A stretch of DNA of 64,000 bases from Candidatus Latescibacterota bacterium (GCA_963422735.1 OY730476.1:288001-352000), one strand, 5' to 3'. Shown: positions 12,784 to 63,454, counted from the first letter of the stretch. Numbers and translations are program-made. The notes: generated by a model from the letters alone, not told the origin.

Positions 12784-12830
12784 GGCCGCTAGTTCTCTCT
12801 TGCATGGGATTTGCTCCTTAGCGACCTTCC

Positions 12831-12990
12831 TTAGTGGTTAGTGATCAGTGATCAGTGATCAGTGATCAGTGGCCAGTCCCAGCCTCCCCGGACCGGTGGT
12901 GCGGGGACTAACCACAGACCACAGACCACAGACCACAGACCACAGACCACAGACCACAGACCACAGACCACAGACCACAGACCACTAACA
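12831..12990. repeat. Heptamer-armed palindromic element: (AGTGGTT/AGTGATC)n - core - (ACCACAG)10
   Basis: 4x AGTGATC at 12840-12867 and 10x ACCACAG at 12911-12980. The arms are imperfect inverted repeats. A related element lies at 44958-45035. Confidence 0.9.
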
Positions 12991-47201: not shown

Positions 47202-47204
47202 GGA

Positions 47205-48572
47205 TTACCGCACTGAGGGTGCATCAGCCTCTGGGGCCGCGTCCATGCCGCCGATGGGATCGGCCGCTTGGGTCGGGTCGCGCAGGGCAACGCGGTCGTC
47301 GGGTGCCAGCCCGTGCTCGACGACGACGAAGTCCTCGTTTTTCTTGCCCAGCGTCACGGCCCGCTCCTCGGGCTGGCCGCCGATGACGCGATAGACGAGT
47401 GCGCGCCCGTCCCTTTCAAAAATCGCGTCTAAGGGAATGTAGAGGGGCAGCGGTGCGGCCGCGGCGACCTCGGTGGTGGCCTCGGGTTGCACCGAGTCCG
47501 GCTTGGCCGCCGACCTCGGCGGGATGGTCTCGACGATGATTTCCGCGGTCGCGGTCATGCCGGGCTTGAGCCGGTCGTCTTCTTCCTCTATTGCGAGCAC
47601 CACGTCGAAGACCTTGACGTTTTTCTCGCCCTCCTTATCGCGGCCGAGCGAGGCAATGCTCTTGATGCGGCCGTGGAAGATGGGTTCGGGTAGGGCGTCG
47701 AGTTTGATGAGGGCGACTTGGCCGGTGTCTAGCTTATCGACCTCGACCTCGTTGACATAGGTCTTGACCTGCATCTGCGAGAGGTCGGGCAGGGAGATGA
47801 CGTTGACCCCGCCCCAGATCTCGTCGCCGACGCGCACTTTTTCTGGCCTCTCGCCCTTCCACACCTTGCCATACACCACCAAGCCGGGCTTTTCAGCCTT
47901 GATGGTCGTGCTTGCCAATTCCTTGCGGGCCTTGTCTAGCTCGCGCTCGTTGCGCTCGATTTCGAGCTGGCGCTTTCTAATATCGGCGTTGTTGACTACC
48001 TGTTGCGACTTGAGTTTCTCGACGGCTTGCTGATAGCTCAGATTGGCTTTGTGAGCTTCGATTTGGGCCTCTTCTTTTTGTACGGTGGCTTCAAAGGCCA
48101 TGCGCTCGACCTTGAGTTCGGCGAGGCGCAAGTTGGCCTCTTGGTTTTTGATGTCGGCTTCGAGTTTGACGATTTCGGCCTTCTGGGTGGCCTGCGTTTT
48201 CTCTAGGTCGGCCTGTGCGGACTCGACTTGCTGCTCGGCGTCCATGACCCGCTTCTGAAAGTCCGTCTGCTCAAACTGGACGAGCAGATCCCCAACGGCG
48301 ACTTGCTCACCCTCGGGGAAAAGCTCGACGATTTTGAGCTGACCTCGGACGCGGGGCGCAACGATATTTTCCGCCTCCACGGCTTCGAGTTCGCCGCCTT
48401 TGAGCTTCAAGGAGATGACGAACTCGCCCTGCTGGACTGGGTAGGTGGGGATGGAAGACGCAGCTTCGTCGGGCATCTGCTGTAAGGCGATAAACGCCGC
48501 CAAAACCGCGACCGCGCAGAGCCCGGCAATCCACCACTTGCGGCGACCGTTGGCACTTGGAATGTGGGTCAA
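47205..48572 (-). CDS. Efflux periplasmic adaptor subunit (MacA/HlyD-like)
   Basis: N-terminal TM segment, lipoyl halves, coiled coil and LKPGMTA. Confidence 0.88.
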   Translation of the reverse strand: MTHIPSANGRRKWWIAGLCAVAVLAAFIALQQMPDEAASSIPTYPVQQGEFVISLKLKGGELEAVEAENIVAPRVRGQLKIVELFPEGEQVAVGDLLVQFEQTDFQKRVMDAEQQVESAQADLEKTQATQKAEIVKLEADIKNQEANLRLAELKVERMAFEATVQKEEAQIEAHKANLSYQQAVEKLKSQQVVNNADIRKRQLEIERNERELDKARKELASTTIKAEKPGLVVYGKVWKGERPEKVRVGDEIWGGVNVISLPDLSQMQVKTYVNEVEVDKLDTGQVALIKLDALPEPIFHGRIKSIASLGRDKEGEKNVKVFDVVLAIEEEDDRLKPGMTATAEIIVETIPPRSAAKPDSVQPEATTEVAAAAPLPLYIPLDAIFERDGRALVYRVIGGQPEERAVTLGKKNEDFVVVEHGLAPDDRVALRDPTQAADPIGGMDAAPEADAPSVR

Positions 48573-48579
48573 GACAACC

Positions 48580-49764
48580 TCATCGGGGGACAGTGGGGTC
48601 TTTGAGAGCGACGATGTCGCCTTCGGCTAGGCCGGAGACAATCGCGGCCGCGGTGGCGTTTTTCGCGGACAATTCTACCTCAACTTCTGCGAAATCGCCG
48701 CCTTCGAGCCGATAGGCAACCCAGCGGTCGGCGCGGGCGAAGACGGCGTTCAGTGGCACGGATAGGACATTGGGGATGGCGCGGAGGACGATTTCGACTT
48801 GGGCGGACATGCCCGGCTTGAGCCGCTCGTCCTGCTCGTCGATGTCGATGACGAGCTCGAAGACGTGGATGTCCGGTGCGCCAGGCTGGGGGGAGGCCAT
48901 GGGCGCGATGTTGGCTACGGTGCCGTTGAAGACCGGCCCGGGGAAGGCTTCGAGGCGGATGAAGACCCGCTGGCCGACGCGTATGCGCTCGATGTCCATT
49001 TCGCCGATCAGGCACAGTACCTGCATTTCGCTCATGTCCGGGATGTCGAGCAGGCCGCGACCTCCCCAGACTTGGTCTCCGACCGCGACTTTGCCCTCCT
49101 CGTCGGTGCCTGGTTTCCAGATTTTGCGATAGACCACGATACCCGGTTTGGCCGCATAGATGCTGGTGCGTTCGTAGTCGCGCCGCGCCCTTTCGTAGCG
49201 CTCCTGCTTGCGGGCGATGTTCAGCTCGTGCTTGCGAAAATCCACCCGGTTGACCACTTCTTGAGCCACGGACTCCTGCCGCGCTTCCGCCGTGGCGCGC
49301 CGGGCCTTCGCCAAATTGATGAGCCCTTGCTCTTGGTCAATGGTGGCGGCGAATTTCTGGCGTTCTTGGTTGACCGCAGCGAGTTGGAGCTCGGCCTGCT
49401 GCTGCTGGATCTTGCGCTTGATGTCGGCGAGGTGTTGCTCGTGCTCGGCCTTGGCCTTGGCGAATTCCGACTGGGCCTGTTCGAGCTGGCCCTCGCGGTC
49501 GAGCATCTCCCGTTCAAACTCGGCCGGGTCGAACTGGAGGATCAAGTCGCCGACATCGACTTTTTCCCCTTCGGGCCAGAGGTGAACGATCTTGAGCCGG
49601 CCGCCGATCCGCGGCGACATCACGACTTCGCCGCTGACCGCGCGCACCTCGCCACCTTCAAAGTGCGTCACCGCAAAATCGCCGCGCACGACCTCGGCCG
49701 TGGGCAGGTCGGGCGGCACGCCCTGACAAGCGCACAGCGCTAGGGCGCAAAAGACCCTTCTCAC
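48580..49764 (-). CDS. Second efflux periplasmic adaptor subunit (probable lipoprotein)
   Basis: [16 protein letters not shown] and LKPGMSA; paralog of the downstream adaptor. Confidence 0.85.
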
Positions 49765-50459
49765 CGGGTGGCCTCCTCGGTCGGGCAATCGCTTTCGATG
49801 CGACCATCGCGGAAGCGGACGATGCGCCGGCTGCGGCGGGCGAGGTGCTCTTCGTGTGTCACGAGGAGGATGGTGTTGCCCGCGGCGTGTACTTGGTCGA
49901 AAAGGTCCATGATTTCGTCGCCGGTGCGGGAGTCGAGGGCACCGGTCGGCTCGTCGGCGAGGATGATGGAGGGCTCGTTGACGAGGGCACGAGCAATGGC
50001 CACGCGCTGCTTCTGGCCGCCGGACAGCGCGTTGGGCCGGTGCTCAACGCGCTCGGCCAAGCCCACAGACTCGAGGGCGAGGGCGGCTCGCTCCCGGCGT
50101 TGTCGCGCCGGCAGGCCGCTGTAAATCAGCGGCAGCTCGACATTGCCCAAGGCATTGGCACGGGGCAGGAGGTTAAAGGTTTGAAAGACGAAGCCGATTT
50201 CCCGATTGCGGATCCTCGCTAAGTCGTCGTCGTCCATCTCGCTGACGAGGACATTGCCGAGAGCGTAGCTGCCCGAGGTGGGCACATCGAGGCAGCCGAG
50301 GATGTTGAGCAGGGTGCTCTTGCCCGATCCCGACGGCCCCATGATGGCCACGTATTCGCCCGCAGCCACGCAGAGGTCCACCCCGCTTAGGGCGTGGATT
50401 GCAGTCGCCCCCATGTCGTAGGTCTTGGTCAGGTTGCGTATTTCAATAATCTCGTCCAT
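49761..50459 (-). CDS. ABC transporter ATP-binding protein (MacB/LolD type)
   Basis: [23 protein letters not shown] and ADEPTG. Confidence 0.95.
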
Positions 50460-51108
50460 CGGCCTTCTCAACCGCTCGCACTTGCCCCTGCTCCAGCCAC
50501 CCAGCCGCAGCCGCTGGCGGCTGGCGCACGCGGACATAGCCCGCTCGCTCTTCTTCGGCGAGCAGGATCGCGCCCGCCTCAACGCGGGCCAGCACTGGAG
50601 CACTGGGAGCGGGGGTCGCGCGCAGTGCGCCGCCGGTGGGTGCGTACACCATGCGTTCGATAAAGCCGTCGATCGTGGCTCTAAATACGGCCATAGCGTC
50701 GCGGGCCAAGTCGTCGTGGGGTGCGACCCGCACGGCCGCTAGCTTACTATAACGATAGGTGATCCCGGCAGCCGCCTCGCTCTGGGCGCGAAGATGGGCC
50801 AACTCGGGCACTGGAGCAGATGCCTTGGGGCCGGCTGCGGTAAAGACCGCGGTTACTAAGGTCTCGGTCTCGGGGTTGTAGGGGCTGGGTTGGGCCTGCC
50901 AGCGGAGGAGTTGGCCATCTTCGTACACTTGCAGGATATAGGCGCGGGTGAGTTCGTCGAAGCGGGCGGCAATGCCCCGGTATTCGCACTCGGCGCGTTG
51001 CAAGGCGTCGATGTCGCGGGCCATATCGCGCACAACGCCCGGGTTTGGGGAAGGGAGTAAGACGAGGGCAGGCGCGAGCAGTGTCTTGAAGATGCGGGCA
51101 GCTAACAT
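50443..51108 (-). CDS. Hypothetical exported protein with C-terminal SH3-like domain
   Basis: [23 protein letters not shown]. Confidence 0.6.
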
Positions 51109-51377: not shown

Positions 51378-52175
51378 ATGAGCGCCATATCCTTTGAGCA
51401 TATGTTGAGCCGCCAGTACACGGTCTTCGATGGGCTGGGTGGGATGCACGTGGAAGACATCTACCAAGACCGCCAAGGCTTTCTCTGGATCGCCACGGCC
51501 GACGGCGGCGTCAGCCGGTTCGACAGTGTGCGCTTCGATACCTTTAACACCAAAGATGGCCTGCCCAATCTGACGGTGATGGCCATTGCCGAGGAAGCCG
51601 ACGGGCGGCTGCTGTTGGGCACGTTTGGCGGGGGGATCGCCGCCTACGACGGGCGCGGCTTTCAGGTGTACACCACCGAGCACGGCCTGCCTTCCAATGA
51701 GATCGTGAGCCTGCAACCGCAGCCGGATGGCTCGATGCTGGTGCTGACCAACGAGGGGGTAGCGTGGTTTGCCGAGGGGGGCTGTACAAGGAGCATAACC
51801 GATGTTGGCGGCCAACCGTTGGGGCGGGTGTACGATATGGCCACTGACGCGGGCGGCACCACTTGGCTGGCCACGTGGGAGCGAGGCGTTCTCAGCTTGG
51901 ATGGGCGGTGCATGGATACCGGCGACCGGGCGGTGCGATGGCCTTGGAAATTCGCCGAAGGTCCCTCTGGCCACCTGTGGATTGCCTTCCTGTACATGAA
52001 CCCCGAAACCTTTATCGGCCGCTACGATGCGCGAGACGAGCAGTTCGCATTCATCCATGTGGATTGCGAAGCCGAGAGGGCTGCGCAGAATGGGGTGCGG
52101 CATGTGCGGGTTGACGATAGGGGCTGGCTCTGGCTGGCGCGCCGAGGGGTGCTCTGCTACGACGGGCAGGCGTGA
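51378..52175 (+). pseudogene. Two-component regulator propeller (Reg_prop) sensor, truncated
   Basis: DGL..V..I.QD..GFLWIAT..GVSRFD and GLP.N repeats. It ends abruptly where a VCBS gene fragment begins. Confidence 0.75.
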
Positions 52176-52187
52176 CATCATTTTTCC

Positions 52188-53041
52188 GAGGAGATGGCGG
52201 CTTCCCAAGACTATACGCCCCGTCATATTGGCGACTTTACCGGTGATGACGCCGATCTCCGGGAGCGTCCGTGGGGTGAACAGGTGGTTTGTGGGGCCCT
52301 TGGGCGCGGCGTTTCAGAGAGGCGAGATATTTGAATTCGATGAGAGGAAGAAGCCGTTAGGGGTGGGCGATTTTGATGGCGATGGGCAGGTGGATTTCCT
52401 CACCGAATTCGCATCCGCTCAATTAGAAGGTGCTATATGATGATCGGCTATTTCTGCGCTCGTCAGTGCGGGTGCGCGACCTCAACGCCGATGGAGTCGA
52501 GGACTGGGTGTTTATCGGCGGGGATCGCGCCTCGGGCTTTGGGGTGTTTGTCGAATGGGGCGGGAGTGTCAACCCTACTCAAGTAGGGGAGCGGCACCCT
52601 CTGGAGGGCAGTGGGATACACGTGCTGTGTGGGGATATGGATAACGACGGCGATCTCGACTTGGTGGTGTTAGATCCGATATGGGGTGGAGTGCATCTGC
52701 TCAAGAGTTCACTGGCCGAGCAGCCAACGGCGGTGCTGACGCCGGCGGTAGCGCGGCCGGTGCAGCATCGGCTGGGTGAAAGCTATCCCAATCCGTTCAA
52801 TCCGGCGGTGGTGCTGCCCCTTGAGTTGGCAACGGACGCGGCGGGAGTGTCGCTGACGGTGTATGACGTGCTGGGTCGTCGGGTGCGGCGGGTGTGGGAC
52901 GGGTCGCTGGGGGCGGGAACGCATCGGTTTACGTGGGATGGCCGCGACGCGGCGGGCAAGGCGGTGGCTGCGGGTGTGTATATCTATCAGGTCGAAGTGG
53001 ATGGGCAGGTGGAAGCGAAGAAGACGACGAAGCGGCCTTGA
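52188..53041 (+). pseudogene. 3' remnant of FG-GAP/VCBS + FlgD-Ig protein (cassette copy 1)
   Basis: Near-identical to the 3' parts of 54063-56213 and 57201-59360, with several deletions. Confidence 0.85.
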
Positions 53042-53302: not shown

Positions 53303-53370
53303 ATACGGAAAACCGTATCCATCATACGGAAAATCGTATAAAACCGTATCCATCATACGGGAAACCGTAT
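53303..53370. promoter_or_regulatory. Palindromic upstream activator sites ATACGG-N4-CCGTAT (3 full + 1 half)
   Basis: Sites at 53303-18, 53324-39 and 53355-70, located 120-190 bp upstream of a sigma54 promoter. Confidence 0.65.
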
Positions 53371-53491: not shown

Positions 53492-53506
53492 TGGCATGCC
53501 ACTTGC
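53492..53506 (+). promoter_or_regulatory. sigma54 -24/-12 promoter
   Basis: TGGCATGCCACTTGC (GG-N10-GC), with an IHF-like TTTCAATCTGTTA at 53440-53452. Confidence 0.75.
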
Positions 53507-53627
53507 ATAGCATAACTGTTGAAGGCGCTGCCGATGCCGACGAGGTATCGGTCGTTGCTCAACGCTGACTTCCAGTATGGTATCGGCCCCAGGCTGCGGA
53601 CGTACTGGGCAACGAAGGAGATGGACC

Positions 53628-53906
53628 ATGGACAGTCTTCGGGAATTCTTCACGTCGTCGAGCGGGTTGGCCCCGGCTCGGCAGGGGTTGGGACTCGGGT
53701 GGGTCATCAGCGCTCTTACGGGGGTCGCTATCCTGCTCGGGGCCAAGGAAGCCGAAGCCGGTAGTTGCCCGGGCGAACGGACAGATTGTTCTTGGCATGC
53801 CGGGTGCGCGGAAGTTTATCCGAATGAGCCGTTCCGGTGCTGCACCAAGAAGTTGGACGCCTACTGCGATGTGATTGAAGTAGTAAGTTGCTCCTGTGTG
53901 GCCTAA
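53628..53906 (+). CDS. Cysteine-rich peptide precursor 1 (44-aa leader + 48-aa core with 8 Cys)
   Basis: AAGGAG 7 nt before the ATG. The leader is identical to copy 2 over residues 1-40. The core is GSCPGERTDCSWHAGCAEVYPNEPFRCCTKKLDAYCDVIEVVSCSCVA. Confidence 0.8.
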   Translation: MDSLREFFTSSSGLAPARQGLGLGWVISALTGVAILLGAKEAEAGSCPGERTDCSWHAGCAEVYPNEPFRCCTKKLDAYCDVIEVVSCSCVA

Positions 53907-54062
53907 GACTACCACATCCGATATAAAGAAGATAGATGGGTGGCCGTTACTCAGGCTAAGGTGCTAAAGGTCCGGATCAATCGTAGCGTTTGAGCCGAGC
54001 TCCTCCTTTTTTCCGACTGCTTAGAGACGCTATCTGCCGGAATTGTTGGAAAGGTATGTGCT

Positions 54063-56213
54063 ATGATGTTGCTATGGGCCGTTGTTACAGGTGTTGTGCT
54101 GTGGGGTGGCTCCGCCGAGGCGGTTAGGTGGGATTTCGACGATGGGACAACGCAGGGGTGGTCTGCCAAAGAAGCGCTTATATGGGGTGGGACGCGTGAA
54201 TTGCACCTGTTTCCGGGGGGGGTCGAAGACGGCGTGTGGCGGATCAATGTCGATCCCTCGGTCACCAAGGGTCATTATCTCGCGCCGAGTGTCGAATTGA
54301 TTTCTTCGACCATCGGGTACGATTCAGGTCTATTCGACCAAGTGCGCATCCGGTTCCGCACCGTCCATCACCACCCTACGGTCGGTAATGTTTCAATCGA
54401 GTGGACCAACGAGCACAACGCCCTGTCTTCAGGTTGGGATCCAAAAGATCCGCCGTCTGGAAGCCGGTTTCAAAGCCCCGTACAACCAATCGTTTATACC
54501 ACCGAGTGGCAGGAAGTGGTGCTCTTCTTGGCAGGTCAAGACGAGAAGATATGGCAGGGGCTGTTAAAAGATATTCAGCTAGGTTTTAGACTGGATGAGA
54601 ACAAAACAGGGGCAACTCGGTCGTCTACCGAGGTGGTCGGGTGGTTTGAGATCGACTGGATCGAGTTGACCGGCGTGGAAGAGATGATACAGGGAGAACT
54701 ACCGCCGCCGCACGTAGAGTACTTTCGCTTTGCTGAGGCCAAACTTTTTGCGCCGCCGGTGTTCTATCCGATTGCGCCGGGCATAGGGGAAGACGCTCTA
54801 GGTCTAGATAAGATCGGCGTCTTGGCGGACTTGGATGGCGATGGCGACTTAGACTTTTTCGCCCCCTATAATTACCGTCAACAGGGGCGATGGTGGTCTA
54901 AAACAGGGTGGCTGATGGCCCTCAATGACGGGCAAGGCGTCTTGGAACTAGGGCGTATAGAGGAAGTATCTGCTACAGAGCAGCCTAGTACCGATGCGGC
55001 AACTGGAACGACGACCGTCTCCGGGGTGATCATAGAGGTGATTGGTGCTGATTTGACCGGCGATGGTAAAGACGAAATCGCGATATCTGCAAGCAACAGT
55101 GGGCAAGTGACAGAAGTTTGGTCTGTGGGGCCGGAACTCCAAGTCGAGGTGCTCGTGCAGATAGAGGATCGATGGATCCGAGATGTGGCGGATTGGGATG
55201 GCGACGGCCGGGTCGAACTATTTGTAGGGGATATTACGTTTGAAGGAAGCACGTTAGAGGTCTGGGATGTCGAGCAGGGGGTGTGGGCCGCCGATGAGAT
55301 TGCGACTGCCAAAAACCATGCGCCCGCTCAGATTGGCGACTTTATCGGCGATGGGGCATTAGACGTGTTGTGGCTACCGATCGCTGGGCGAGTGAATACG
55401 TGGATTGTGCAGGCCTTGAGCGAGGAGTTTCAGAGAGGCGAGATATTTGAATTCGATGAGAGGAAAGGGCTGTTAGGGATGGGCGATTTTGATGGCGATG
55501 GACAGGTGGATTTCCTCACCGAATTCGCACTTGATCGAATCGAAGGTAGGAAGGGACTGGTTTTGCAGAGGAAGCGCGCCGGAGATCGCTTAGCAGCCGA
55601 GGTGCTCTACGATGATCGGCTGTTTCTGCGCTCGTCAGTGCGGGTGCGCGACCTCAACGCCGATGGAGTCGAGGACTGGGTATTTATCGGCGGGGATCGC
55701 GCCTCGGGCTTTGGGGTGTTTGTCGAATGGGGCGGGAGCGTCAACCCTACTCAAGCAGGGGAGCGGCATCGTCTGGAGGGCAGTGGGCGATACGTGCTGT
55801 GTGGGGATATGGATAACGACGGCGATCTCGACTTGGTGGTGTTAGATCCGATATGGGGTGGAGTGCATCTGCTCAAGAGTTCACTGGCCGAGCAGCCAAC
55901 GGCGGTGCTGACGCCGGCGGTAGCGCGACCGGTGCAGCATCGGCTGGGCGACAGCTATCCCAATCCGTTCAATCCGGCGGTGGTGCTGCCCCTTGAGTTG
56001 GCAACGGACGCGGCGGGAGTGTCGCTGACGGTGTATGACGTGTTGGGTCGTCGGGTGCGGCGGGTGTGGGACGGGTCGCTGGGGTCGGGAACGCATCGGT
56101 TTACGTGGGATGGCCGCGACGCGGCGGGCAAGGCGGTGGCCGCCGGGGTGTATATCTATCAGGTCGAAATCGACGGGCAGGTGGAAGCGAAGAAGACGAC
56201 GAAGCGGCCTTGA
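54063..56213 (+). CDS. Secreted FG-GAP/VCBS repeat protein with N-terminal beta-sandwich and C-terminal FlgD-Ig (T9SS-CTD-like) domain
   Basis: Signal peptide ending AEA; WDFDDGTTQGW..EIDWIEL; multiple DxDGDGxxD; YPNPFNP..VYDVLGR.VR..WDGRD..G..VAAGVY.Y. Confidence 0.88.
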   Translation: MMLLWAVVTGVVLWGGSAEAVRWDFDDGTTQGWSAKEALIWGGTRELHLFPGGVEDGVWRINVDPSVTKGHYLAPSVELISSTIGYDSGLFDQVRIRFRTVHHHPTVGNVSIEWTNEHNALSSGWDPKDPPSGSRFQSPVQPIVYTTEWQEVVLFLAGQDEKIWQGLLKDIQLGFRLDENKTGATRSSTEVVGWFEIDWIELTGVEEMIQGELPPPHVEYFRFAEAKLFAPPVFYPIAPGIGEDALGLDKIGVLADLDGDGDLDFFAPYNYRQQGRWWSKTGWLMALNDGQGVLELGRIEEVSATEQPSTDAATGTTTVSGVIIEVIGADLTGDGKDEIAISASNSGQVTEVWSVGPELQVEVLVQIEDRWIRDVADWDGDGRVELFVGDITFEGSTLEVWDVEQGVWAADEIATAKNHAPAQIGDFIGDGALDVLWLPIAGRVNTWIVQALSEEFQRGEIFEFDERKGLLGMGDFDGDGQVDFLTEFALDRIEGRKGLVLQRKRAGDRLAAEVLYDDRLFLRSSVRVRDLNADGVEDWVFIGGDRASGFGVFVEWGGSVNPTQAGERHRLEGSGRYVLCGDMDNDGDLDLVVLDPIWGGVHLLKSSLAEQPTAVLTPAVARPVQHRLGDSYPNPFNPAVVLPLELATDAAGVSLTVYDVLGRRVRRVWDGSLGSGTHRFTWDGRDAAGKAVAAGVYIYQVEIDGQVEAKKTTKRP

Positions 56214-56463
56214 GGGGATGCGTCTATGCGACCGTACGCACTCGTATTGGCCTTTGCTCAAGCACCGCAGCGGCTTGGCTCTGATGCGGCCGGGGCTGAG
56301 GGGGCCGGGTTCTCAGTGCTTCGCGGGGCTTGCGGTCCTGCTCGGCGCGCGGGGAGCCGCACGCCGACCGGGAGGGCGCGATCCCTAGGAGTAGCTATAG
56401 CCTCGCTCCGATGGTATGTAGGCGGCATCGAAGGGGCTATGAAAATGGGCGGGGCCTCGGTGC

Positions 56464-56500
56464 ATACGGAAAACCGTATCCATCATACGGAAAATCGTAT
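56464..56500. promoter_or_regulatory. Two palindromic upstream activator sites
   Basis: ATACGGAAAACCGTAT and ATACGGAAAATCGTAT, 21 bp apart. Confidence 0.65.
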
Positions 56501-56621
56501 GCTCCCTAGCACCGACGGCTCCGGCACCGACAAGTAGAAAGCTTTCTCATACATTATAAGTATCATGTTTTTCAATCTGTTAGATGCGTCCTGAAGGATT
56601 TTTTGTTCGGATTCTGCTCGT

Positions 56622-56636
56622 TGGCACGCCATTTGC
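56622..56636 (+). promoter_or_regulatory. sigma54 -24/-12 promoter
   Basis: TGGCACGCCATTTGC, a full match to TGGCACG-N4-TTGC. Confidence 0.8.
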
Positions 56637-56762
56637 ATAGCATAACTGTTGAAGGCGCTGCCGATGCCGACGAAAGAAGGTATCGGTCGTTGCTCAACGC
56701 TGACTTCCAGTATGGTATCGGCCTCAGGCTGCGGACGTACTGGGCAACGAAGGAGATGGACC

Positions 56763-57044
56763 ATGGACAGTCTTCGGGAATTCTTCACGTCGTCGAGCGG
56801 GTTGGCCCCGGCTCGGCAGGGGTTGGGACTCGGGTGGGTCATCAGTGCTCTTACGGGGGTCGCTATCCTGCTCGGGGCGAAAGGAGCTGCAGCCGATTGC
56901 GACAAAAGAAAGTGGACAAGGGACTTCGGGTACAGCGCAGGTTGCGACGAGGCCACGAAAGGGGCAGCGGCGAAGATGTGTCAGGACTGTTGGCTGGACT
57001 CGAAATGCAAAACAAGGTGCGGGGGGAACTACTGCTGCGCTTGA
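56763..57044 (+). CDS. Cysteine-rich peptide precursor 2 (44-aa leader + 49-aa core with 8 Cys)
   Basis: Same RBS and leader as precursor 1. The core is DCDKRKWTRDFGYSAGCDEATKGAAAKMCQDCWLDSKCKTRCGGNYCCA. Confidence 0.8.
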   Translation: MDSLREFFTSSSGLAPARQGLGLGWVISALTGVAILLGAKGAAADCDKRKWTRDFGYSAGCDEATKGAAAKMCQDCWLDSKCKTRCGGNYCCA

Positions 57045-57100: not shown

Positions 57101-57141
57101 GGGGCCGGCTTAATCGCTGCGATTGAGCCGGCCCCCTTTTC
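57101..57141 (+). terminator. Rho-independent terminator between the peptide and VCBS genes
   Basis: ggggccggcttaatcgc-t-gcgattgagccggcccc hairpin followed by ctttt. Confidence 0.7.
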
Positions 57142-57200: not shown

Positions 57201-59360
57201 ATGCTGAAATTTGTCGCTGTTGCATGGGTTGTGCTGGGCAGTAGCCTCGCCGAGGCGGTTAGGTGGGATTTCGACGATGGGACGACGCAAGGGTGGACCG
57301 CCAAAGAAGCGCTTATATGGGGTGGTACGCGTGAATTTAACCAGTTTCTGGGGGGGGTCGAAGACGGCGTGTGGCGGATCCGGATTGATCCGGCCGCTAC
57401 CAAGAGTTTGCACACCTCCAGGTCGGGTGTCGAAGTGATTTCTTCGGCGATCGGGTATGATTCGGACCTGTTCGATCAAGTCCGCATCCGGTTCCGCACC
57501 GTCCATGACCGTCCTACGGAAGGTACTTTTTCTATCGCGTGGGAAAACGCTTCCGATTTTAATCTGGATGCTGAATATGAAGCGTTAACGTCTTTTATAC
57601 ATCTCGCCCAGCAAATAGTCTATACCACCGAGTGGCAGGAATTGGTGGTATCCTTGGCGGGTCAAGCCGGATGGCAGGGCCTGTTAGAAAATATTCAGCT
57701 AAGTTTCATATCTTTTGAAGTGGTCGAGTCGTTTGAGATTGACTGGATCGAGTTGACCGGCGTGGAAGAGATGATACAGGGAGAACGGCCGCCGCCGCCC
57801 GTAGAGTACTACTTTCGCTTTGCGGGGGCCGGCCTTTTTGCGCCGCCGGTGTTCTATCCGATTGCGCCGGGCATAGGGGAAGCACCTATTGGAGGAAGGT
57901 ATCTAGGGGATAAGGTATGGGGCAACGTGTTGACGGACTTGGATGGCGATGGCGACTTAGACCTGTTCGGCCTCTGGAAAACGCGAACGGAAATACCACA
58001 TGGGTATGAGGATAAAGCGGGCTGGCTGATGGCTGTCAATGACGGGCGAGGGGCCTTGGAACGTGGGCCTGTTATAGAAGAAGTAATGGCTGCAGGTTGG
58101 GTGGTCTTAAAGATGCTGAGTGCTGATTTGACCGGCGATGGTAAGGACGAAATCGCGATATCACGAAGCAACCGGGAACCCTCGACCGAAGTGTGGTCTA
58201 TCGGGCCGGAACTCCAAATCGAGGTGCTCGTGCAGTTCGATAGCGGGCTCCATAATGTGGCGGATTGGGATGGCGACGGCCGGGTTGAGTTATTTACGGG
58301 GGGGGCTATGTTTGAAGGCTCTTTAGAGGAAGTGATCGCGGGTACGGCGAAGTTTTCAAGCAGGTTAGCGGTCTGGGAGGTCGAACAGGGCGTGTGGACT
58401 TCCGAGGAAGTGGCGGCTTCCCAAGACTATACGCCCTCTCATATCGGCGACTTTACTGGCGATGGGACCCTCGATGTGTTTTGGGTGCCGATCGCCGGGG
58501 AAGCCCGTGGGATGAACAGGTGGATTGTGGGAGCCTTGGGCGAGGAGCATCAGAAAGGAGAGATATTTGAATTCGATGAACGGAAGGGGCCGTTAGGGGT
58601 GGGCGATTTTGATGGTGATGGGCAGGTGGATTTCCTCACCGAGTTCACATCCCCTCAATTCAAAGATGGCATAGAAAGAATTAGCATAGAAGGTAGTAAG
58701 GGGATCGTCTTGCAGAGAAAGGGAGCCGGGGATCGCCTCGAAGCGGAGGTGCTGTATGATGATCGGCTGTTTCGGCGCTCGCCGGTGATGGTGCGCGACC
58801 TCAACGCCGATGGAGTCGAGGACTGGGTGTTTATCGGCGGGGATCGCGCCTCGGGCTTTGGGGTGTTTGTCGAATGGGGCGGGAGCGTCAACCCTACTCA
58901 AGCAGGGGAGCGGCATCGTCTGGAGGGCAGTGGGCGATACGTGCTGTGTGGGGATATGGATAACGACGGCGATCTCGACTTGGTGGTGTTAGATCCGATA
59001 TGGGGTGGGGTGCATCTGCTTGAGAGTTCACTGGCCGAGCAGCCAACGGCGGTGCTGACGCCGGCGGTAGCGCGACCGGTGCAACATCGGCTGGGCGACA
59101 GCTATCCCAATCCGTTCAATCCGGCGGTGGTGCTGCCCCTTGAGTTGGCAACGGACGCGGCGGGAGTGTCGCTGACGGTGTATGACGTGTTGGGTCGTCG
59201 GGTGCGGCGGGTGTGGGACGGGCCGCTGGGGTCGGGAACGCATCGGTTTACGTGGGATGGCCGCGACGCGGCGGGCAAGGCGGTGGCTGCCGGGGTGTAT
59301 ATCTATCAGGTCGAAATCGACGGACAGATAGAAGCCAAGAAGACGACCAAGCTACCGTAA
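57201..59360 (+). CDS. Secreted FG-GAP/VCBS repeat protein with FlgD-Ig C-terminus (cassette copy 3)
   Basis: RBS GGAGG and ATG at 57201. Paralog of 54063-56213 with a near-identical C-terminal third. Confidence 0.88.
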   Translation: MLKFVAVAWVVLGSSLAEAVRWDFDDGTTQGWTAKEALIWGGTREFNQFLGGVEDGVWRIRIDPAATKSLHTSRSGVEVISSAIGYDSDLFDQVRIRFRTVHDRPTEGTFSIAWENASDFNLDAEYEALTSFIHLAQQIVYTTEWQELVVSLAGQAGWQGLLENIQLSFISFEVVESFEIDWIELTGVEEMIQGERPPPPVEYYFRFAGAGLFAPPVFYPIAPGIGEAPIGGRYLGDKVWGNVLTDLDGDGDLDLFGLWKTRTEIPHGYEDKAGWLMAVNDGRGALERGPVIEEVMAAGWVVLKMLSADLTGDGKDEIAISRSNREPSTEVWSIGPELQIEVLVQFDSGLHNVADWDGDGRVELFTGGAMFEGSLEEVIAGTAKFSSRLAVWEVEQGVWTSEEVAASQDYTPSHIGDFTGDGTLDVFWVPIAGEARGMNRWIVGALGEEHQKGEIFEFDERKGPLGVGDFDGDGQVDFLTEFTSPQFKDGIERISIEGSKGIVLQRKGAGDRLEAEVLYDDRLFRRSPVMVRDLNADGVEDWVFIGGDRASGFGVFVEWGGSVNPTQAGERHRLEGSGRYVLCGDMDNDGDLDLVVLDPIWGGVHLLESSLAEQPTAVLTPAVARPVQHRLGDSYPNPFNPAVVLPLELATDAAGVSLTVYDVLGRRVRRVWDGPLGSGTHRFTWDGRDAAGKAVAAGVYIYQVEIDGQIEAKKTTKLP

Positions 59361-59365
59361 ACGGC

Positions 59366-59956
59366 ATGGGACAGCCTAAGCATCCATTATACTGGATGTA
59401 CTCCGGTTTAATCCTGCTCTTAATCCCTGCGATTATTGTGCTTGTGGACCGCTATGAAAAGAGCCTCAGCCCCCAAGCGCCCCTACCGCCTGCTCCGCCT
59501 AAAGAAGTTGTGTTGCGCGGTCTCGCCGCGTTTGATTCCACCGCGAGTGCTCTCCACCTAAAAGAAGTGTATCAGGCCGTGCCCGCGCTGCGTTCCGGGG
59601 TGTTGTCAGCCTATCGCGTGCTTACAGACGACGAGGCATTGGCCTACAAGCTAGTCGTCGTTCGCCACGATATTGCCTGTGCTACCTGCCGCGATCTACT
59701 GGTTGGCATCCTCATAGAGCCGAAGGAAGACCGCGTTGCGGCTGTTTGGTCCTTGGCGTCTTGGGAGCTGGCCGACGGCCGCTTCGATCCGACCGCCTTC
59801 TTTGCCCAACTGAGCGGGCGGGCACTCGCTGAGCCTTTGGTTGTAGGCCGGGATATCGATGGAATCACCGGGGCGACCCTGTCCGTAAATGCCTTGGTGA
59901 CCCAATGGAGCCAAGCGGGCACTTGGCTGGCGGAGTCCACGGGAATCACCTTTTGA
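59366..59956 (+). CDS. Membrane-anchored FMN-binding domain protein with CxxC
   Basis: N-terminal TM segment; HDIACATC; DGITGATLS covalent-flavinylation motif (RnfG/NosR-like). Confidence 0.75.
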   Translation: MGQPKHPLYWMYSGLILLLIPAIIVLVDRYEKSLSPQAPLPPAPPKEVVLRGLAAFDSTASALHLKEVYQAVPALRSGVLSAYRVLTDDEALAYKLVVVRHDIACATCRDLLVGILIEPKEDRVAAVWSLASWELADGRFDPTAFFAQLSGRALAEPLVVGRDIDGITGATLSVNALVTQWSQAGTWLAESTGITF

Positions 59957-59969
59957 GGAGTATTGGGCT

Positions 59970-61127
59970 ATGGATATGTTGCTGAATGAGATTGATCTCG
60001 TCTTCTTGCTAGAGTGGGGCCTGCTGTGCTCGATCATGGCTGTTGCCGCCTACACAACTTATACGGACGTCAGCCATAGAGAGATTCCCAATTCGGCTAT
60101 TGGGACTTTGCTCGGTCTGGGGCTGATAGGGCAGATGGGATTGTGGATATTGGGTGAGGTTGCACTCGTATCGATCGGGCTATCATTGCTGCTGGGATTT
60201 GCCGTAGGCTACCTGTTGTTTATGTATGGCTTCTGGGGGGCGGGGGATGCCAAGTTGTATTGGGCCATGGTCGCGGCGATGCCTAGTACGTTGTTTGGTC
60301 AGAAGTGGCCGACTCTCTCCTTGGCCTTTTTTTCGCTAGATACCCCTATTTGGTCCTTGTTGGTCAATACCATTTTGACCAATACCGTTTTTCTTGTAGT
60401 CCTTCTGGTCCTCCATAAACCCGCAAGACCCATCGCAATCTCTGCAAGCGAGCATAGAAAGGGCATGAATTGGGGCTGGCTGCGCTCGGGGTTTGAAGCG
60501 GCAGGATTGAGCGGGTTGGTGTTAGGTGGGACGACGTTGGTCGGCGTGACCTTGACCCTCGCCGAGGCTATCGTAGTGGGGGCTGTGCTCTATTTGATCC
60601 ATGAAGAGCGGACCAAGGCGCCCAATAGAATTATTTGGGTCGTTCCCGGGCTTGTAATCGGTGTCTTTAGCACCATCAGCACCGGGAACTACCTGATCTG
60701 TCTCTTGCTTTGGGCCGTGCTGTGGGGCATACAGACCGTCTATGTGTATATCCACGCTCTCGAGTACCAGAAGTTTGTGCAGCCGGTTTCTATCGATGCC
60801 TTACAGCCGGGCATGGTGCTACATCAGTCGATTTATGAAGCCCCTGCGGAAGGGCGAGTCGAAGTAGTTTCGTTCGGCGAGCAGAGTAGAGATACGCGGG
60901 AGCGAATAGGTCGAATGGGCAAGCCGTTGACCGGGCGAAAAGTGCGCCAGCTAAAAGACCTACAAAAAAAGGGATTGTTCCGCGAATGGGACGATCAGGT
61001 AGAAGTTGAACTGTCGCTGCCCTTTGCGCCGGTCTTGATGGTTGGCGTCGGCCTAACTCTGATATGGCCCGGAAGTATGGTAAGGCCAGTCAATCGGTGG
61101 ATTCAGCCGTTGTTCGATGCGTTTTAG
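59970..61127 (+). CDS. A24 family (prepilin/preflagellin-type) GxGD aspartic peptidase
   Basis: YTD..REIPN and GAGDAKL catalytic aspartates; many TM helices; C-terminal L.PGMVL..PFAP domain as in FlaK/EppA-like enzymes. Confidence 0.82.
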   Translation: MDMLLNEIDLVFLLEWGLLCSIMAVAAYTTYTDVSHREIPNSAIGTLLGLGLIGQMGLWILGEVALVSIGLSLLLGFAVGYLLFMYGFWGAGDAKLYWAMVAAMPSTLFGQKWPTLSLAFFSLDTPIWSLLVNTILTNTVFLVVLLVLHKPARPIAISASEHRKGMNWGWLRSGFEAAGLSGLVLGGTTLVGVTLTLAEAIVVGAVLYLIHEERTKAPNRIIWVVPGLVIGVFSTISTGNYLICLLLWAVLWGIQTVYVYIHALEYQKFVQPVSIDALQPGMVLHQSIYEAPAEGRVEVVSFGEQSRDTRERIGRMGKPLTGRKVRQLKDLQKKGLFREWDDQVEVELSLPFAPVLMVGVGLTLIWPGSMVRPVNRWIQPLFDAF

Positions 61128-61145
61128 GGAAAGGAAAGATACACG

Positions 61146-61700
61146 ATGAAAGCTATGCGCTCGAAACCGCAAGCGACGATGCTGTTGCTGTCAACGGTGC
61201 TGGGCATCCTCTTGGGGACCAGTATATTGTTGGCCACAAAAATCAACAATCCTCCAATCGCCCCAATGGCGACGAGCTTGGAAAACCTGTTGGGTGAACG
61301 CGTCCCGGAGTACAAACTCGAACAACTGAACGGTGCTCCAATCTCGACCCATCTGTACAAGGGCGAATCCCACCTGCTGGCCTTTACGCTGCCGAGTTGT
61401 GATGCCTGTGACACCATGTACCCCATTTTAAGGGAAGCGGCTACAGATATTCCCATTTTGATGATTGCCAATACACGAGAAGGACTGATGGAAAAGGTCG
61501 CCGAACACGCCTTGGCCTTTCCCATTGCTGTAGATACACTGCTGCTGACGATGGAAGAGCTCAACATCACGAATTTCCCGACCGCGCTCTTGGTGGATGG
61601 GGAACAAAGGATCGTCGAGGCCGTCAGGGGCGGCGGCTTCCCGATTGAGAACATTGTACAGTCCGCGCAGAAAGTACTTGAAAAAGAGAGGACACAATGA
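61146..61700 (+). CDS. TlpA/redoxin-like thioredoxin-fold protein
   Basis: TM anchor, P.Y.LEQLNG, CDAC and cis-Pro FPT..LVD. Confidence 0.82.
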   Translation: MKAMRSKPQATMLLLSTVLGILLGTSILLATKINNPPIAPMATSLENLLGERVPEYKLEQLNGAPISTHLYKGESHLLAFTLPSCDACDTMYPILREAATDIPILMIANTREGLMEKVAEHALAFPIAVDTLLLTMEELNITNFPTALLVDGEQRIVEAVRGGGFPIENIVQSAQKVLEKERTQ

Positions 61701-62227
61701 GGGCCGATCAAAAGCATTGGAAGATCGCCGGGCTTGTGAGCGTGGTCTTGTTGCTGGTGCTGATTTTCAAGGAGAAGTCTGAGGAACCAGCGGGGATCGT
61801 CTGGAGCGAGGAGGATACGAAGCGTTCTGAGTATCTATCTGAAGGAACAGACGCCCCTGACTTTGAATTGCCCTCTATGCAAGGGGGCCACGTCCGTCTC
61901 AGCCGTTTTAAGGGGCAGCGGGTAGGGCTGATTTTTGTAACCCCTACCTGCCCGTATTGCAACGACTTGGAACGTTACTTGGTAGAGTACGACCTTCCCC
62001 AAGAGAGCCATTTGCTACTGGTCAGCCAAGGTACGAAAGACCAAGTGCAGCAAATCGTCGAAAACCACGACTTGGCGATACCCGTTTTGGTCGACTCAGC
62101 GGGTGCGGTTGCCCAAGCCTACCGGATCGGGGGTGTGCCGCAGTTTTACGTGGTGAGCAAGGAGGGAAGCATTGCTTCTTTTGCGCGAGGGATGCCGCCG
62201 GTATGGGAAGCCGTGCAAAAGCTATAA
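61697..62227 (+). CDS. TlpA/redoxin-like thioredoxin-fold protein
   Basis: TM anchor, APDFELPSMQG, CPYC and GVPQFYVV. Confidence 0.85.
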   Translation: MRADQKHWKIAGLVSVVLLLVLIFKEKSEEPAGIVWSEEDTKRSEYLSEGTDAPDFELPSMQGGHVRLSRFKGQRVGLIFVTPTCPYCNDLERYLVEYDLPQESHLLLVSQGTKDQVQQIVENHDLAIPVLVDSAGAVAQAYRIGGVPQFYVVSKEGSIASFARGMPPVWEAVQKL

Positions 62228-62248
62228 ACAAGGAGGACACTACGAGGT

Positions 62249-63454
62249 ATGGAAATCATTCCGTTAATTGCCGAACGCGACGTAGCGATGCAACGGGCGT
62301 GGGTCGCACAAAATCGAGATGTACGCACCCAAGCGAAGGCTTGCCTCCTTTTGGGACGCTATTACAAGGAACAAGGTGAACTCGACAAGGCTGAAGCCCT
62401 GTACCGAAGAGCCCTTGCGAAAGCACGGCCGTTGCAGGCACATGAGATGGAAGCCGATGCGTGCAGCGGCTTGGGGCTTATGTACCAAGTCAAGGGACGG
62501 ATGGACGAGGCGGTTGACTATCTCAATAAAGCCTTTGAGATCAATAGGGAATGCCGCGATGAGCAGCGTCTGGCCGTCAACTATAGCAATAGAGGCTTTG
62601 TCGCCCATCTCCAAGGAAAAATTGGAGAAGCACAAGACCTGCACATACGCGCTCAGAAACTTCACGAGGTGTCGGGCAATAGAGCCTATTGGGCGGAAGA
62701 ATGCGGCAACTTGGGTCAGTTGGCACTCCAGCAGAACAAACTGGAGGAGGCCGAGGGCTACTTTCAGCAGGGGCTGAACATTTGTGAAGAATTCGGCGAT
62801 CTGCAAGGTATTTCCGGCCACTATCAAGGCTTGGGACTGGTCTATCTCGGACAGCAGCGTTTGGCCGAAGCCGAAGGCATCCTTAAAAAAGGCCTTGCGA
62901 TCGAGGAGCGGCTCCAGCGCGACGAGGGATTGGCTCATCATTACAGCGTCTTGGGGGGCGTATATAGCCGAGCAGGTCGGTTTAATGAGGCGGAAACCAT
63001 GTACCGTCGGACGCTGGCCATCCAACGCAAATTAGGCCATAAACAGTTTGAAGCCCGCACCATAAGCGGTCTGGGGCAGATGCTATGGGAGAAAGGCGAC
63101 CTGCGAGAAGCTACGGCGTCGTTTCAGCAGGCTAGGGCACTGTTTGACGCGATCGGAGACAACAAAGGCGGGGCGGTACAAGCGGCTCTTTTGGGCGATA
63201 CCTATATGGACGTTGAAAACTTTCATGCGGCAGAGGGGGCGTATCGGCAGGCGGTGCAGCTATTTGAGAAAGTATCGGACTTGGAGGCCGTAGCCGACGT
63301 TAGAGTTCGTTTGGGGAGGGTCTATGCTTCGAATCAGGCTCCTTATGATGCCTTGCTTCAGTGGCGGCAAGCACTGGAATTATACCGCGAACTCCAGCTA
63401 GACGACCGGGTTGAGTTCGTAGAAGAGCTTCTGAGGACGAGCGGCAGAACGTAA
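62249..63454 (+). CDS. Tetratricopeptide repeat protein
   Basis: About nine TPR units (LG.Y..G...EA...Y..AL.I). Confidence 0.88.
   Translation: MEIIPLIAERDVAMQRAWVAQNRDVRTQAKACLLLGRYYKEQGELDKAEALYRRALAKARPLQAHEMEADACSGLGLMYQVKGRMDEAVDYLNKAFEINRECRDEQRLAVNYSNRGFVAHLQGKIGEAQDLHIRAQKLHEVSGNRAYWAEECGNLGQLALQQNKLEEAEGYFQQGLNICEEFGDLQGISGHYQGLGLVYLGQQRLAEAEGILKKGLAIEERLQRDEGLAHHYSVLGGVYSRAGRFNEAETMYRRTLAIQRKLGHKQFEARTISGLGQMLWEKGDLREATASFQQARALFDAIGDNKGGAVQAALLGDTYMDVENFHAAEGAYRQAVQLFEKVSDLEAVADVRVRLGRVYASNQAPYDALLQWRQALELYRELQLDDRVEFVEELLRTSGRT

Follow-up and report, generated by a model that had tools for sequence, protein, structure and literature searches.

Animal venoms, like the immunity and mating systems of plants and animals, are characterised by families of disulfide-rich peptides in which a conserved signal is joined to a hypervariable mature part, and no bacterial counterpart was found in print. 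In the plant S-locus, SCR/SP11 is a small secreted hypervariable peptide with eight cysteines whose gene adjoins that of the receptor SRK, and the two co-diversify. Conserved extensions are also known from Sec signal peptides, namely the ESPR of autotransporters and the YSIRK signals. Three further systems serve for comparison: MgCRP-I, an animal cysteine-rich peptide gene family found in mussels (PMC4558851); T9SS (type IX secretion system) cargo, which is exported with a Sec signal (PMC9251779); and the Tat hitchhiker co-export of PaoABC, in which a subunit devoid of its own targeting signal is carried by a partner having one (PMC4273604). The locus described here is located in a 64,000-nt stretch of a Candidatus Latescibacterota genome (GCA_963422735.1, OY730476.1:288001-352000), hereafter the window, and centres on two genes, designated peptide A and peptide B, each of which encodes a short precursor composed of a conserved leader and a cysteine-rich core. 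As judged from sequence, these genes are one half of a conserved two-gene module, the other half being a gene for a propeller protein predicted to be secreted by the T9SS, a partner that the original prediction made on this DNA had missed. On balance, we lean towards reading the peptides as sigma-54-driven, Sec-exported, disulfide-rich mini-proteins that dock into cognate T9SS propellers, with both partners diversifying at their interface and the peptide probably being co-exported.

Peptides A and B and their family

The features of the two peptide genes are as follows.
53628-53906, + strand: peptide A gene, 92 aa
53628..53759, + strand: peptide A leader, 44 codons, with conserved n-region, hydrophobic segment and A-x-A
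53760..53906, + strand: peptide A core and stop codon, 48 aa, 8 Cys, class I framework; AlphaFold2 pLDDT 85-90
56763-57044, + strand: peptide B gene, 93 aa
56763..56894, + strand: peptide B leader, 44 codons
56895..57044, + strand: peptide B core and stop codon, 49 aa, 8 Cys, class II framework; AlphaFold2 pLDDT 88-92

As the original prediction had stated, residues 1-40 are the same in A and B and are followed by EAEA in A and by GAAA in B, and each core carries eight cysteines arranged in different frameworks, C-C-C-CC-C-CxC in A (48 aa) and C-C-CxxC-C-C-CC in B (49 aa). Its choice of start, an ATG located 7 nt downstream of AAGGAG, also held, as did its remark that both genes are obscured by wrong upstream starts, the mechanical list of open reading frames (ORFs) giving 109 aa for A and 131 aa for B. 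The first 30 nt of the leader occur exactly twice in the window, with 0 occurrences expected. The two genes are part of a tandem repeat having a unit of ca. 3.1 kb (direct repeats D1-D4), in which the A and B units are 96-99% identical as DNA between the 3' end of the large propeller gene that precedes the peptide (hereafter "big" gene) and about codon 40, ca. 590 bp of intergenic DNA included. Past this codon the similarity collapses and the core stretch cannot be aligned.

A second frame across the leader, starting with MDHGQ, was considered and rejected. In 39 leaders, variation by codon position amounts to 6.2, 4.1 and 14.3, and synonymous pairwise differences number 8404 in the MDSL frame versus 1859 and 1334 in the shifted frames. 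As synonymous differences prevail in the MDSL frame alone, conservation of the leader acts at the protein level, and the MDHGQ frame is non-coding.

At 53743-53760 of the window, public assembly contigs from several runs stop or fork exactly at the leader/core junction, and one public contig runs from this junction into the core of peptide B. These breaks are explained by identical leaders being joined to different cores, which creates a repeat boundary at which short-read assemblies may mis-join or lose these genes.

With peptide A as query, 159 proteins were retrieved at E <= 0.01, each of ca. 90 aa and none with a Pfam domain or a name. Scans of peptides A and B against Pfam and NCBIfam returned no family at E <= 1, and since the family has no name in these libraries its genes are easily overlooked or mis-started. 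A leader-only query against 1.84 billion representatives gave 28 matches, which is an undercount because clustering at 50% identity merges members having a common leader. The 39 loci retrieved from species-representative genomes all belong to metagenome-assembled genomes of Candidatus Latescibacterota, often with several loci per genome. In a phylum-wide sample searched with the window leader (E <= 1e-5), the leader was detected in 13 of the 21 other genomes of the window's genus versus none of 129 genomes of other genera; over the whole genus it is present in 21 of 31 genomes, with up to 18 matches in a single one. Among the sampled genomes, the peptide family is confined to one genus-level Latescibacterota group. 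The window's genome carries four copies corresponding to A, B, C (ca. 16 kb downstream, class I) and D, the latter having a diverged leader and six cysteines. A motif scan also hit by chance, outside the window, a small ORF near position 408831 of G000:C1 (- strand) which combines an ordinary signal peptide with a C-terminal part rich in Cys and which is unrelated to the peptide family.

Of 121 cores, 90 have eight cysteines, 15 have six and 7 have ten. The even number of cysteines proposed from A and B extends to 115 of the 121, the six odd ones including truncated or frameshifted entries. At least six frameworks occur, with class I (A-type) counting 50 members, class II (B-type) 26 and a third eight-cysteine class 14. 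Inside each of these classes all eight cysteines are invariant while most of the remaining core positions are variable, and the ten-cysteine variants of class II have acquired both extra cysteines together. The pattern noted for the two window genes, of a conserved leader set against a hypervariable core, is borne out family-wide.

Several sequence features support the view that the leader is an export signal ending in an A-x-A of the signal peptidase I type, after which the precursor would be cleaved. The A-x-A pattern read from A and B recurs throughout the family, position -1 being Ala in 120 of 121 members and position -3 being A, V, T or G in 120 of 121, with position -2 left free (9 residues). 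The n-region is basic, with R5 and R18 invariant or nearly so, and the hydrophobic segment (residues 23-37) is directly preceded by an invariant Gly20-Leu21. The same leader also heads proteins in which 2-3 tandem cores are fused to a T9SS C-terminal domain (CTD).

The ratio of non-synonymous to synonymous substitutions (dN/dS, by NG86), a comparison that the original prediction had proposed for leader versus core, is 0.18 versus 0.75 in class I and 0.16 versus 0.64 in class II. Leader identity is 0.873 (n=41 pairs) for leaders of different class taken from one genome, and drops to 0.821 (n=186) for those of a single class taken from different genomes. This likeness of leaders within genomes, taken together with the near-identical non-coding DNA and preceding sorting domain, points to concerted evolution by gene conversion, with one boundary of the conversion tract at the leader/core junction. 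The identity of the A and B leaders is thus accounted for by strong purifying selection combined with gene conversion that spans the CTD, the intergenic DNA and the leader.

The cores of A and B, by contrast with what had been claimed for them, are not unrelated. A core-only profile-profile comparison matched them with 75% probability (E = 2.4e-5, 31 columns), the maximum for 10 column-shuffled controls being 7.4%. In AlphaFold2 models built from the class alignments, a small beta-sheet domain comes after a long N-terminal helix; the cores are confidently predicted (pLDDT 85-90 for A and 88-92 for B), and both display the same layout of strand, short helix, strand and strand (beta-alpha-beta-beta). 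On the basis of these profiles and models, the cores are distant homologs having one small predicted fold in which the cysteines have been partly rewired. The likeness to defensins, knottins or conotoxins did not hold at the level of fold, as Foldseek against the PDB gave 0 matches at E <= 0.001 for either core, in a search whose sensitivity was lowered by the low-confidence leader contained in the query models. The best match of core A, the bacteriocin laterosporulin, is not significant (E = 3), and an ESM Atlas search with core A gave no usable match. The models do not allow the cores to be assigned to defensins or knottins.

Propeller proteins and predicted docking

Two complete big genes and the remnant of a third are found around the peptide genes.
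54063..56213, + strand: big protein A, with signal peptide, N-terminal domain, FG-GAP propeller and type A T9SS CTD; predicted partner of core A
57201..59360, + strand: big protein B, paralog of big protein A; start set by alignment with homologs
52234..53041, + strand: 3' remnant of a frameshifted big FG-GAP/T9SS gene, forming the first part of the homogenised repeat

Big protein A matches FG-GAP_3 and FlgD_ig of Pfam, and both big proteins score above the cut-off of 23 bits for TIGR04183, the type A T9SS sorting domain (31.5 bits for A and 29.7 for B). The window's genome encodes PorU (632 bits; cut-off 420) and has ca. 50 further matches to CTD-like C-termini. With P0004 as the tblastn query, the remnant gives matches over residues 423-507 in one frame and over residues 513-719 in another. 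All four peptide copies of this genome have a big-protein paralog downstream, and among the 39 related loci there are 37 in which the peptide gene has a full-length big homolog downstream, often as tandem arrays. The big-protein family is greatly expanded in the genus, its N-terminal domain having up to 33 matches in one genome. A 157-aa ORF resembling this domain, probably a fragment, occurs at L006:4791-5264 just upstream of an intact activator gene (see below).

A tree was computed for 40 big proteins after removal of their last 110 residues, with L024, L037 and L045 omitted for lack of a usable big ORF. Class II peptides are found next to a single big-protein clade in 14 cases out of 14 (support 100). 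Placed on the tree, the core class labels require 8 changes, versus a mean of 19.3 for shuffled labels, and none of 200 shuffles was that low. The agreement of these labels with the big-protein tree shows that peptide and big genes are passed on in pairs.

Structure prediction further suggests that the two products may bind each other. For residues 21-612 of big A combined with residues 45-92 of core A, both supplied with their own alignment, the complex model scores 0.81 (0.82, 0.81 and 0.79 in three runs) versus 0.00 for the best control; this mark was attained by 58 of 80 solved complexes and by 2 of 110 mismatched pairs, a calibration that is rough here since own alignments were used. Between runs, contacts agree at 84% or more, and partner pLDDT is at least 78. 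Nearly the entire core A is in contact with big A, the contacts of the latter recurring along the propeller (near residues 246, 275, 318, 346, 370, 391, 421, 440, 468 and 492) and involving the N-terminal domain as well; those predicted for the pocket lie near residues 38-45, 246-249, 272-279, 314-325, 390-393 and 438-442 of big A. In the model, core A resembles a ligand seated in the propeller's central face, beneath the N-terminal domain.

Variation in the big proteins is concentrated at this predicted seat. Between the big clades paired with class I and class II peptides, identity is 0.23 at the 58 predicted contact residues versus 0.63 elsewhere, and none of 5000 permutations gave a value as low; likewise, big A and big B share the same residue at 22 out of 50 contact positions versus 376 out of 511 positions outside the contacts. 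The dN/dS is 1.02 for contact residues, with 330 of 541 pairs exceeding 1; the rest of the protein has 0.35, with none of 557 pairs exceeding 1, and the sorting domain has 0.22. Low identity together with a dN/dS close to 1 at the contacts indicates that the variable part of the big protein is the predicted seat of the variable peptide.

Regulation and the wider conserved locus

The following regulatory features were detected around the peptide genes.
53492..53507, + strand: sigma-54 type promoter TGGCAT-N5-TTGCA, 136 nt upstream of the peptide A ATG
56622..56637, + strand: sigma-54 type promoter TGGCAC-N5-TTGCA, 141 nt upstream of the peptide B ATG
53303..53370, no strand assigned: three copies of the palindrome ATACGG-N4-YCGTAT, candidate enhancer (upstream activating sequence) for the activator, upstream of A
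56464..56500, no strand assigned: two copies of the palindrome ATACGG-N4-YCGTAT, upstream of peptide B
51378..52172, + strand: N-terminal fragment of a sigma-54 activator with Reg_prop repeats (Pfam Reg_prop, E = 1.6e-18)
57101..57135, + strand: strong hairpin with T-rich tail, terminator-like, 16-bp stem, dG -32.5, between peptide B and big B

The pattern TGGCAY-N5-TTGCA has 9 sites in the whole genome, and copy C is preceded by a GGCAC-N5-GTGCA promoter. In 27 of the 39 related loci a looser -24/-12 pattern occurs 149-177 nt upstream, versus 0.04 expected per 450 nt. The exact palindrome ATACGG-N4-CCGTAT is found three times in the 4.95-Mb genome, always upstream of peptides A and B, and related palindrome arrays occur at copy C and in 7 of 39 loci (3-5 sites, 19-21 nt apart). 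The genome has rpoN, and an intact sigma-54 activator of 1048 aa, with Reg_prop repeats, Y_Y_Y and AAA+, is encoded directly upstream of copy C, ca. 16 kb downstream of the activator fragment. As this protein has no transmembrane segment, its propeller sensor is predicted to be cytoplasmic. A tblastn match to the activator lies upstream of the peptide in 19 of 39 loci, 12 being full-length among the matches listed, with 70-79% identity. In the window, the activator fragment (51378-52172) is the broken remainder of the array's own regulator and abuts the big-gene remnant (52234-53041), this regulator having been lost through rearrangement. With their -24 GG/-12 GC spacing, upstream sites and activator, and with rpoN in the genome, the peptide genes qualify as putatively sigma-54-dependent.

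A hairpin with dG <= -18 is found ca. 45-60 nt past the peptide stop codon in 37 of 41 loci, and one with dG <= -14 and a T-rich tail in 26 of 41. In the window, it is strong after peptide B and weak after peptide A.

Farther upstream in the window, at 41137-44066 (+ strand), a histidine kinase gene (HAMP, HisKA, HATPase_c) precedes that of a second sigma-54 activator, one of the response-regulator type whose sensor part is unrelated to that of the Reg_prop activator.

Downstream of big B, the locus continues with five genes.
59366..59956, + strand: membrane-anchored protein with FMN_bind-like C-terminus (weak match, E = 0.014, below cut-off), one transmembrane segment
59970..61127, + strand: A24-family prepilin/preflagellin peptidase-like membrane aspartyl protease, ca. 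8 transmembrane segments, GAGDAK motif
61146..61700, + strand: membrane-anchored thioredoxin-fold CxxC protein (ResA/MauD-like)
61697..62227, + strand: second thioredoxin-fold CxxC protein (ResA/MauD-like; AhpC-TSA E = 5.5e-18, ResA 1.8e-14)
62249..63454, + strand: TPR protein, end of the conserved locus, at the same place in L056

This tail (59366-63454) matches the gene order of the related locus L056, in which an activator, two peptide genes, a big gene and two leader-multicore-T9SS fusion proteins are followed by an FMN_bind-like membrane protein, an A24-family peptidase, two thioredoxin-fold CxxC proteins and a TPR protein. The A24 peptidase scores 30 bits with Pfam Peptidase_A24 (cut-off 26.5), and the FMN_bind-like protein is kept at the same position in related loci. 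The leader-core-CTD fusions (L056:5807-6799 and 4894-5850, - strand, and P0129) contain one to three tandem Cys-rich cores; the multi-core ones score above the TIGR04183 cut-off, and in several genomes of this genus leader matches are again found at the head of open frames of 256-356 aa. A paralogous set is found in L057, which has a D-type leader: activator (59% identity), peptidase (37%), FMN-like protein (37.5%) and two thioredoxins, followed by three or four peptide-plus-big units. In the window's genome, copy D is preceded by two redoxin-type CxxC proteins.

The A24 peptidase occurs in 17 of 21 leader-positive genomes versus none of 10 leader-negative ones, 5 of these 10 having big genes, and a second peptidase subtype (ca. 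40% identity) lies 2-3 kb from diverged-leader matches in 8 genomes. These patterns of presence and absence suggest that the peptides, the peptidase, the FMN-like protein and the thioredoxins form one accessory set superimposed on an older activator-propeller pairing. The conserved locus is a larger, putatively sigma-54-controlled unit around the peptides, a context that had likewise escaped the first reading of this DNA.

Other neighbours were noted. A MacB-type ABC exporter operon is located upstream of the array at 45957-50603 (- strand) and comprises a MacB_PCD/FtsX permease, two HlyD-family adaptors and an ABC ATPase. A 90%-identical MacB adjoins the array in L042 and L044 only, and since the exporter stands beside the array in the window and in these two loci only, it was not counted in the system. 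DUF4159 paralogs flank copy C and follow copy D (L006:3243-4583 and 11590-12933; L007:10182-10898), with DUF4159 matches in 11 of 39 related loci.

Proposed working, alternatives and comparison with known systems

In the working that we propose, each peptide gene would be transcribed from its own sigma-54 promoter, the upstream palindromes being bound by a dedicated activator with a cytoplasmic beta-propeller sensor, and a strong hairpin would separate the peptide gene from the next one. The 44-residue leader would route the precursor via Sec and be cut off after A-x-A, so that the core of ca. 48 residues could fold in the periplasm as a beta-alpha-beta-beta unit with four disulfides, probably with assistance from the two ResA/MauD-like thioredoxins and perhaps from the FMN-bind-like protein. 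The A24-type peptidase may be a dedicated factor acting on, or with, the leader. The core would then dock in a hypervariable pocket of the cognate FG-GAP propeller encoded just downstream, whose type A CTD would direct it to type IX secretion, and the peptide-propeller pair would probably exit the cell, or reach its surface, jointly. Peptide and propeller would be duplicated together as a unit and would diversify where their surfaces touch, with the CTD, the intergenic region and the leader being held alike by selection and gene conversion. Of this working, the sequences establish the genes, the family, its synteny, the promoter motifs and the pattern of selection; cleavage sites, disulfides, binding and joint secretion are inferred. 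Our best guess as to their role is surface recognition or adhesion specificity. A more far-reaching version, which we regard as quite unlikely, would make the locus a self-contained maker of linked, co-diversifying ligand-receptor pairs, like SCR-SRK, with piggyback export through the T9SS, each peptide travelling inside its cognate propeller; the cytoplasmic part of the leader, conserved to an unusual degree, would itself serve as a signal, being released into the cytoplasm by the A24-type (GxGD) protease once export has taken place and read by the activator's propeller, which has no transmembrane segment, thereby coupling transcription to secretion.

Several observations weigh against peptides that dock in their propellers. 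Kin share labels, so that the tree result is also compatible with mere linkage and is not in itself proof of interaction. In some genomes big paralogs exceed leader matches (33 versus 10; 20 versus 1), five genomes carry big genes and no leader match, and in L058, which is leader-negative as a genome, the activator is directly followed by a big gene with no peptide ORF in between; together these cases indicate that the propeller can do without the peptide. Conversely, some cores are fused directly to a CTD and can therefore be cargo unaided. The docking comes from one structure prediction with unpaired alignments, the controls being unrelated proteins and not the non-cognate paralog, and the predictor may favour placing any small protein in a propeller pocket. 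Variable loops are also where ligands of any kind would bind, and the dN/dS of the contacts derives from non-independent pairs that are near saturation at the interface (dN ca. 0.9), where the alignment is least certain. The hairpin between peptide and big genes permits separate expression. Finally, neither DsbA (PF01323) nor VKOR (PF07884) was detected in the 95%-complete genome of the window, other oxidase families not having been searched.

Some of these points would sit well with the peptides being stand-alone secreted effectors (bacteriocin, toxin or signal) that diversify against external targets, next to a propeller gene with a separate job, a reading that we hold to be unlikely. They would then be a bacterial analog of conotoxins or defensins, in line with the resemblance drawn by the original prediction. 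A conserved signal with hypervariable cores built around conserved cysteines, an own promoter for each peptide gene with a strong hairpin after it, the MacB-type exporter beside the array in the window and two related loci, and genomes with big genes but no peptides would all fit such effectors, as would laterosporulin being the best, albeit non-significant (E = 3), Foldseek match of core A. Against them stand a big gene kept in synteny at 37 of 39 loci and the agreement of core class with the big-protein tree, as well as the score of the complex model (0.81 versus 0.00 for controls) and the concentration of big-protein hypervariability at the predicted contacts; furthermore, neither core has a significant defensin or knottin fold match, and no immunity-like gene was recognised in the conserved locus. 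The dedicated A24-family peptidase, with its intact GxGD-type motif, raises another alternative, in which the peptides would be pilin-like, the peptidase cutting a class III (prepilin-type) signal after the invariant Gly20 and the hydrophobic segment being retained as an anchor or assembly helix. This is decidedly unlikely in our judgement, even if the peptidase is found together with the leader and has diverged in parallel with the latter's subtype, Gly20-Leu21 is invariant just ahead of the hydrophobic segment, and the models combine a long N-terminal helix with a small beta-sheet domain. The Pfam and NCBIfam libraries include a prepilin N-terminal model, yet neither P0001 nor P0002 matched any family at E <= 1, and hence none of the prepilin-type signals. 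Pilins typically have Glu at +5, whereas here Trp occupies position +5 counted from Gly20; the A-x-A that follows the hydrophobic segment fits signal peptidase I and would be left unexplained by a retained anchor; and no pilus ATPase, platform or secretin gene was found in the window flanks, L056 and L057, the rest of the genome not having been searched. The fusions of cores to a T9SS CTD point instead to soluble periplasmic cargo.

Two further alternatives concern the fate of the cysteines. That the peptides are precursors of ribosomally synthesised and post-translationally modified peptides (RiPPs), with a leader recognised by modifying enzymes and a Cys-rich core that is enzymatically cross-linked, has the layout of conserved leader and variable Cys-rich core and the existence of multi-core precursors in its favour, but appears highly improbable. 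Radical SAM, YcaO and lanthionine synthetase are the families typical of RiPP modifying enzymes, and none of them is among the Pfam/NCBIfam matches of the conserved locus genes, which gave regulators, thioredoxins, peptidase, TPR, DUF4159 and T9SS cargo only; besides, the leader has a signal-type hydrophobic segment with A-x-A, and the cores are confidently predicted as small folded domains and occur fused to T9SS sorting domains. There is likewise only a very slight chance that the cysteines bind a metal or an Fe-S cluster and form no disulfides. Such binding would agree with Cys-dense cores having CC, CxC and CxxC and with DsbA and VKOR not being found, but the proteins are predicted to be extracytoplasmic, given their export signal and their T9SS-fused relatives, cysteine counts are even with extra cysteines gained pairwise, frameworks differ between classes while the predicted fold is constant, and the locus encodes thiol-disulfide oxidoreductases.

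If the docking is true, the family would constitute a natural library of matched mini-protein/propeller pairs in which the evolution of binding specificity could be followed and from which orthogonal binder scaffolds could be drawn, it would be the first case of piggyback export via a type IX secretion system, and it would open a way into the cell-surface biology of an uncultured phylum. The parts of the locus are of known kinds, and the assembled system could not be matched to a described one; no account of the family or of the system was found in the literature, in a search that did not cover most subscription journals and supplements.

Like conotoxins and MgCRP-I, the peptide family has a conserved signal, a hypervariable mature part, invariant cysteines in a few frameworks and many paralogs. 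It differs from them in being bacterial, in having no pro-region and no detectable fold match, and in being tied to the gene of a predicted cognate large protein within a putatively sigma-54-driven locus that carries dedicated maturation genes. Indeed, the family comes with a predicted cognate partner, a dedicated regulator and a maturation set (membrane protease, two thioredoxins and a possible flavoprotein), and this assembly is conserved in two paralogous versions.

The big and multi-core fusion proteins resemble T9SS type A cargo, with TIGR04183 scores above the cut-off and PorU in the genome. Peptides A and B, unlike such cargo, have no CTD, and their passage across the outer membrane would need a partner. 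No description of piggyback export by the T9SS was found in the literature searched, including parts of PMC9251779, and the resemblance of the module to Tat hitchhiking lies in the hypothesis only, since pathway and membrane differ. As in ESPR and YSIRK signals, the leader has a long n-region that is conserved in sequence and common to one class of cargo; it is not related to them in sequence and, unlike them, it co-occurs with a dedicated A24-type membrane protease. The thioredoxins of the locus are similar to MauD and ResA, types involved in maturing periplasmic proteins rich in disulfides, in being membrane-anchored CxxC proteins of thioredoxin fold that are encoded beside a Cys-rich exported substrate, and their scores (35-54 bits versus cut-offs of 170-189) make them relatives and not members of these families.

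What the module most works like is SCR/SP11-SRK, although by analogy only. There is no homology between the two, both partners of the bacterial module would be exported by the same cell, several pairs occur per genome, and the partner is an FG-GAP propeller with a T9SS tail whereas SRK is a receptor kinase; a function in recognition is suggested by the analogy. The feature that would be common to both is a hypervariable peptide and its putative binder that are encoded side by side and co-diversify.

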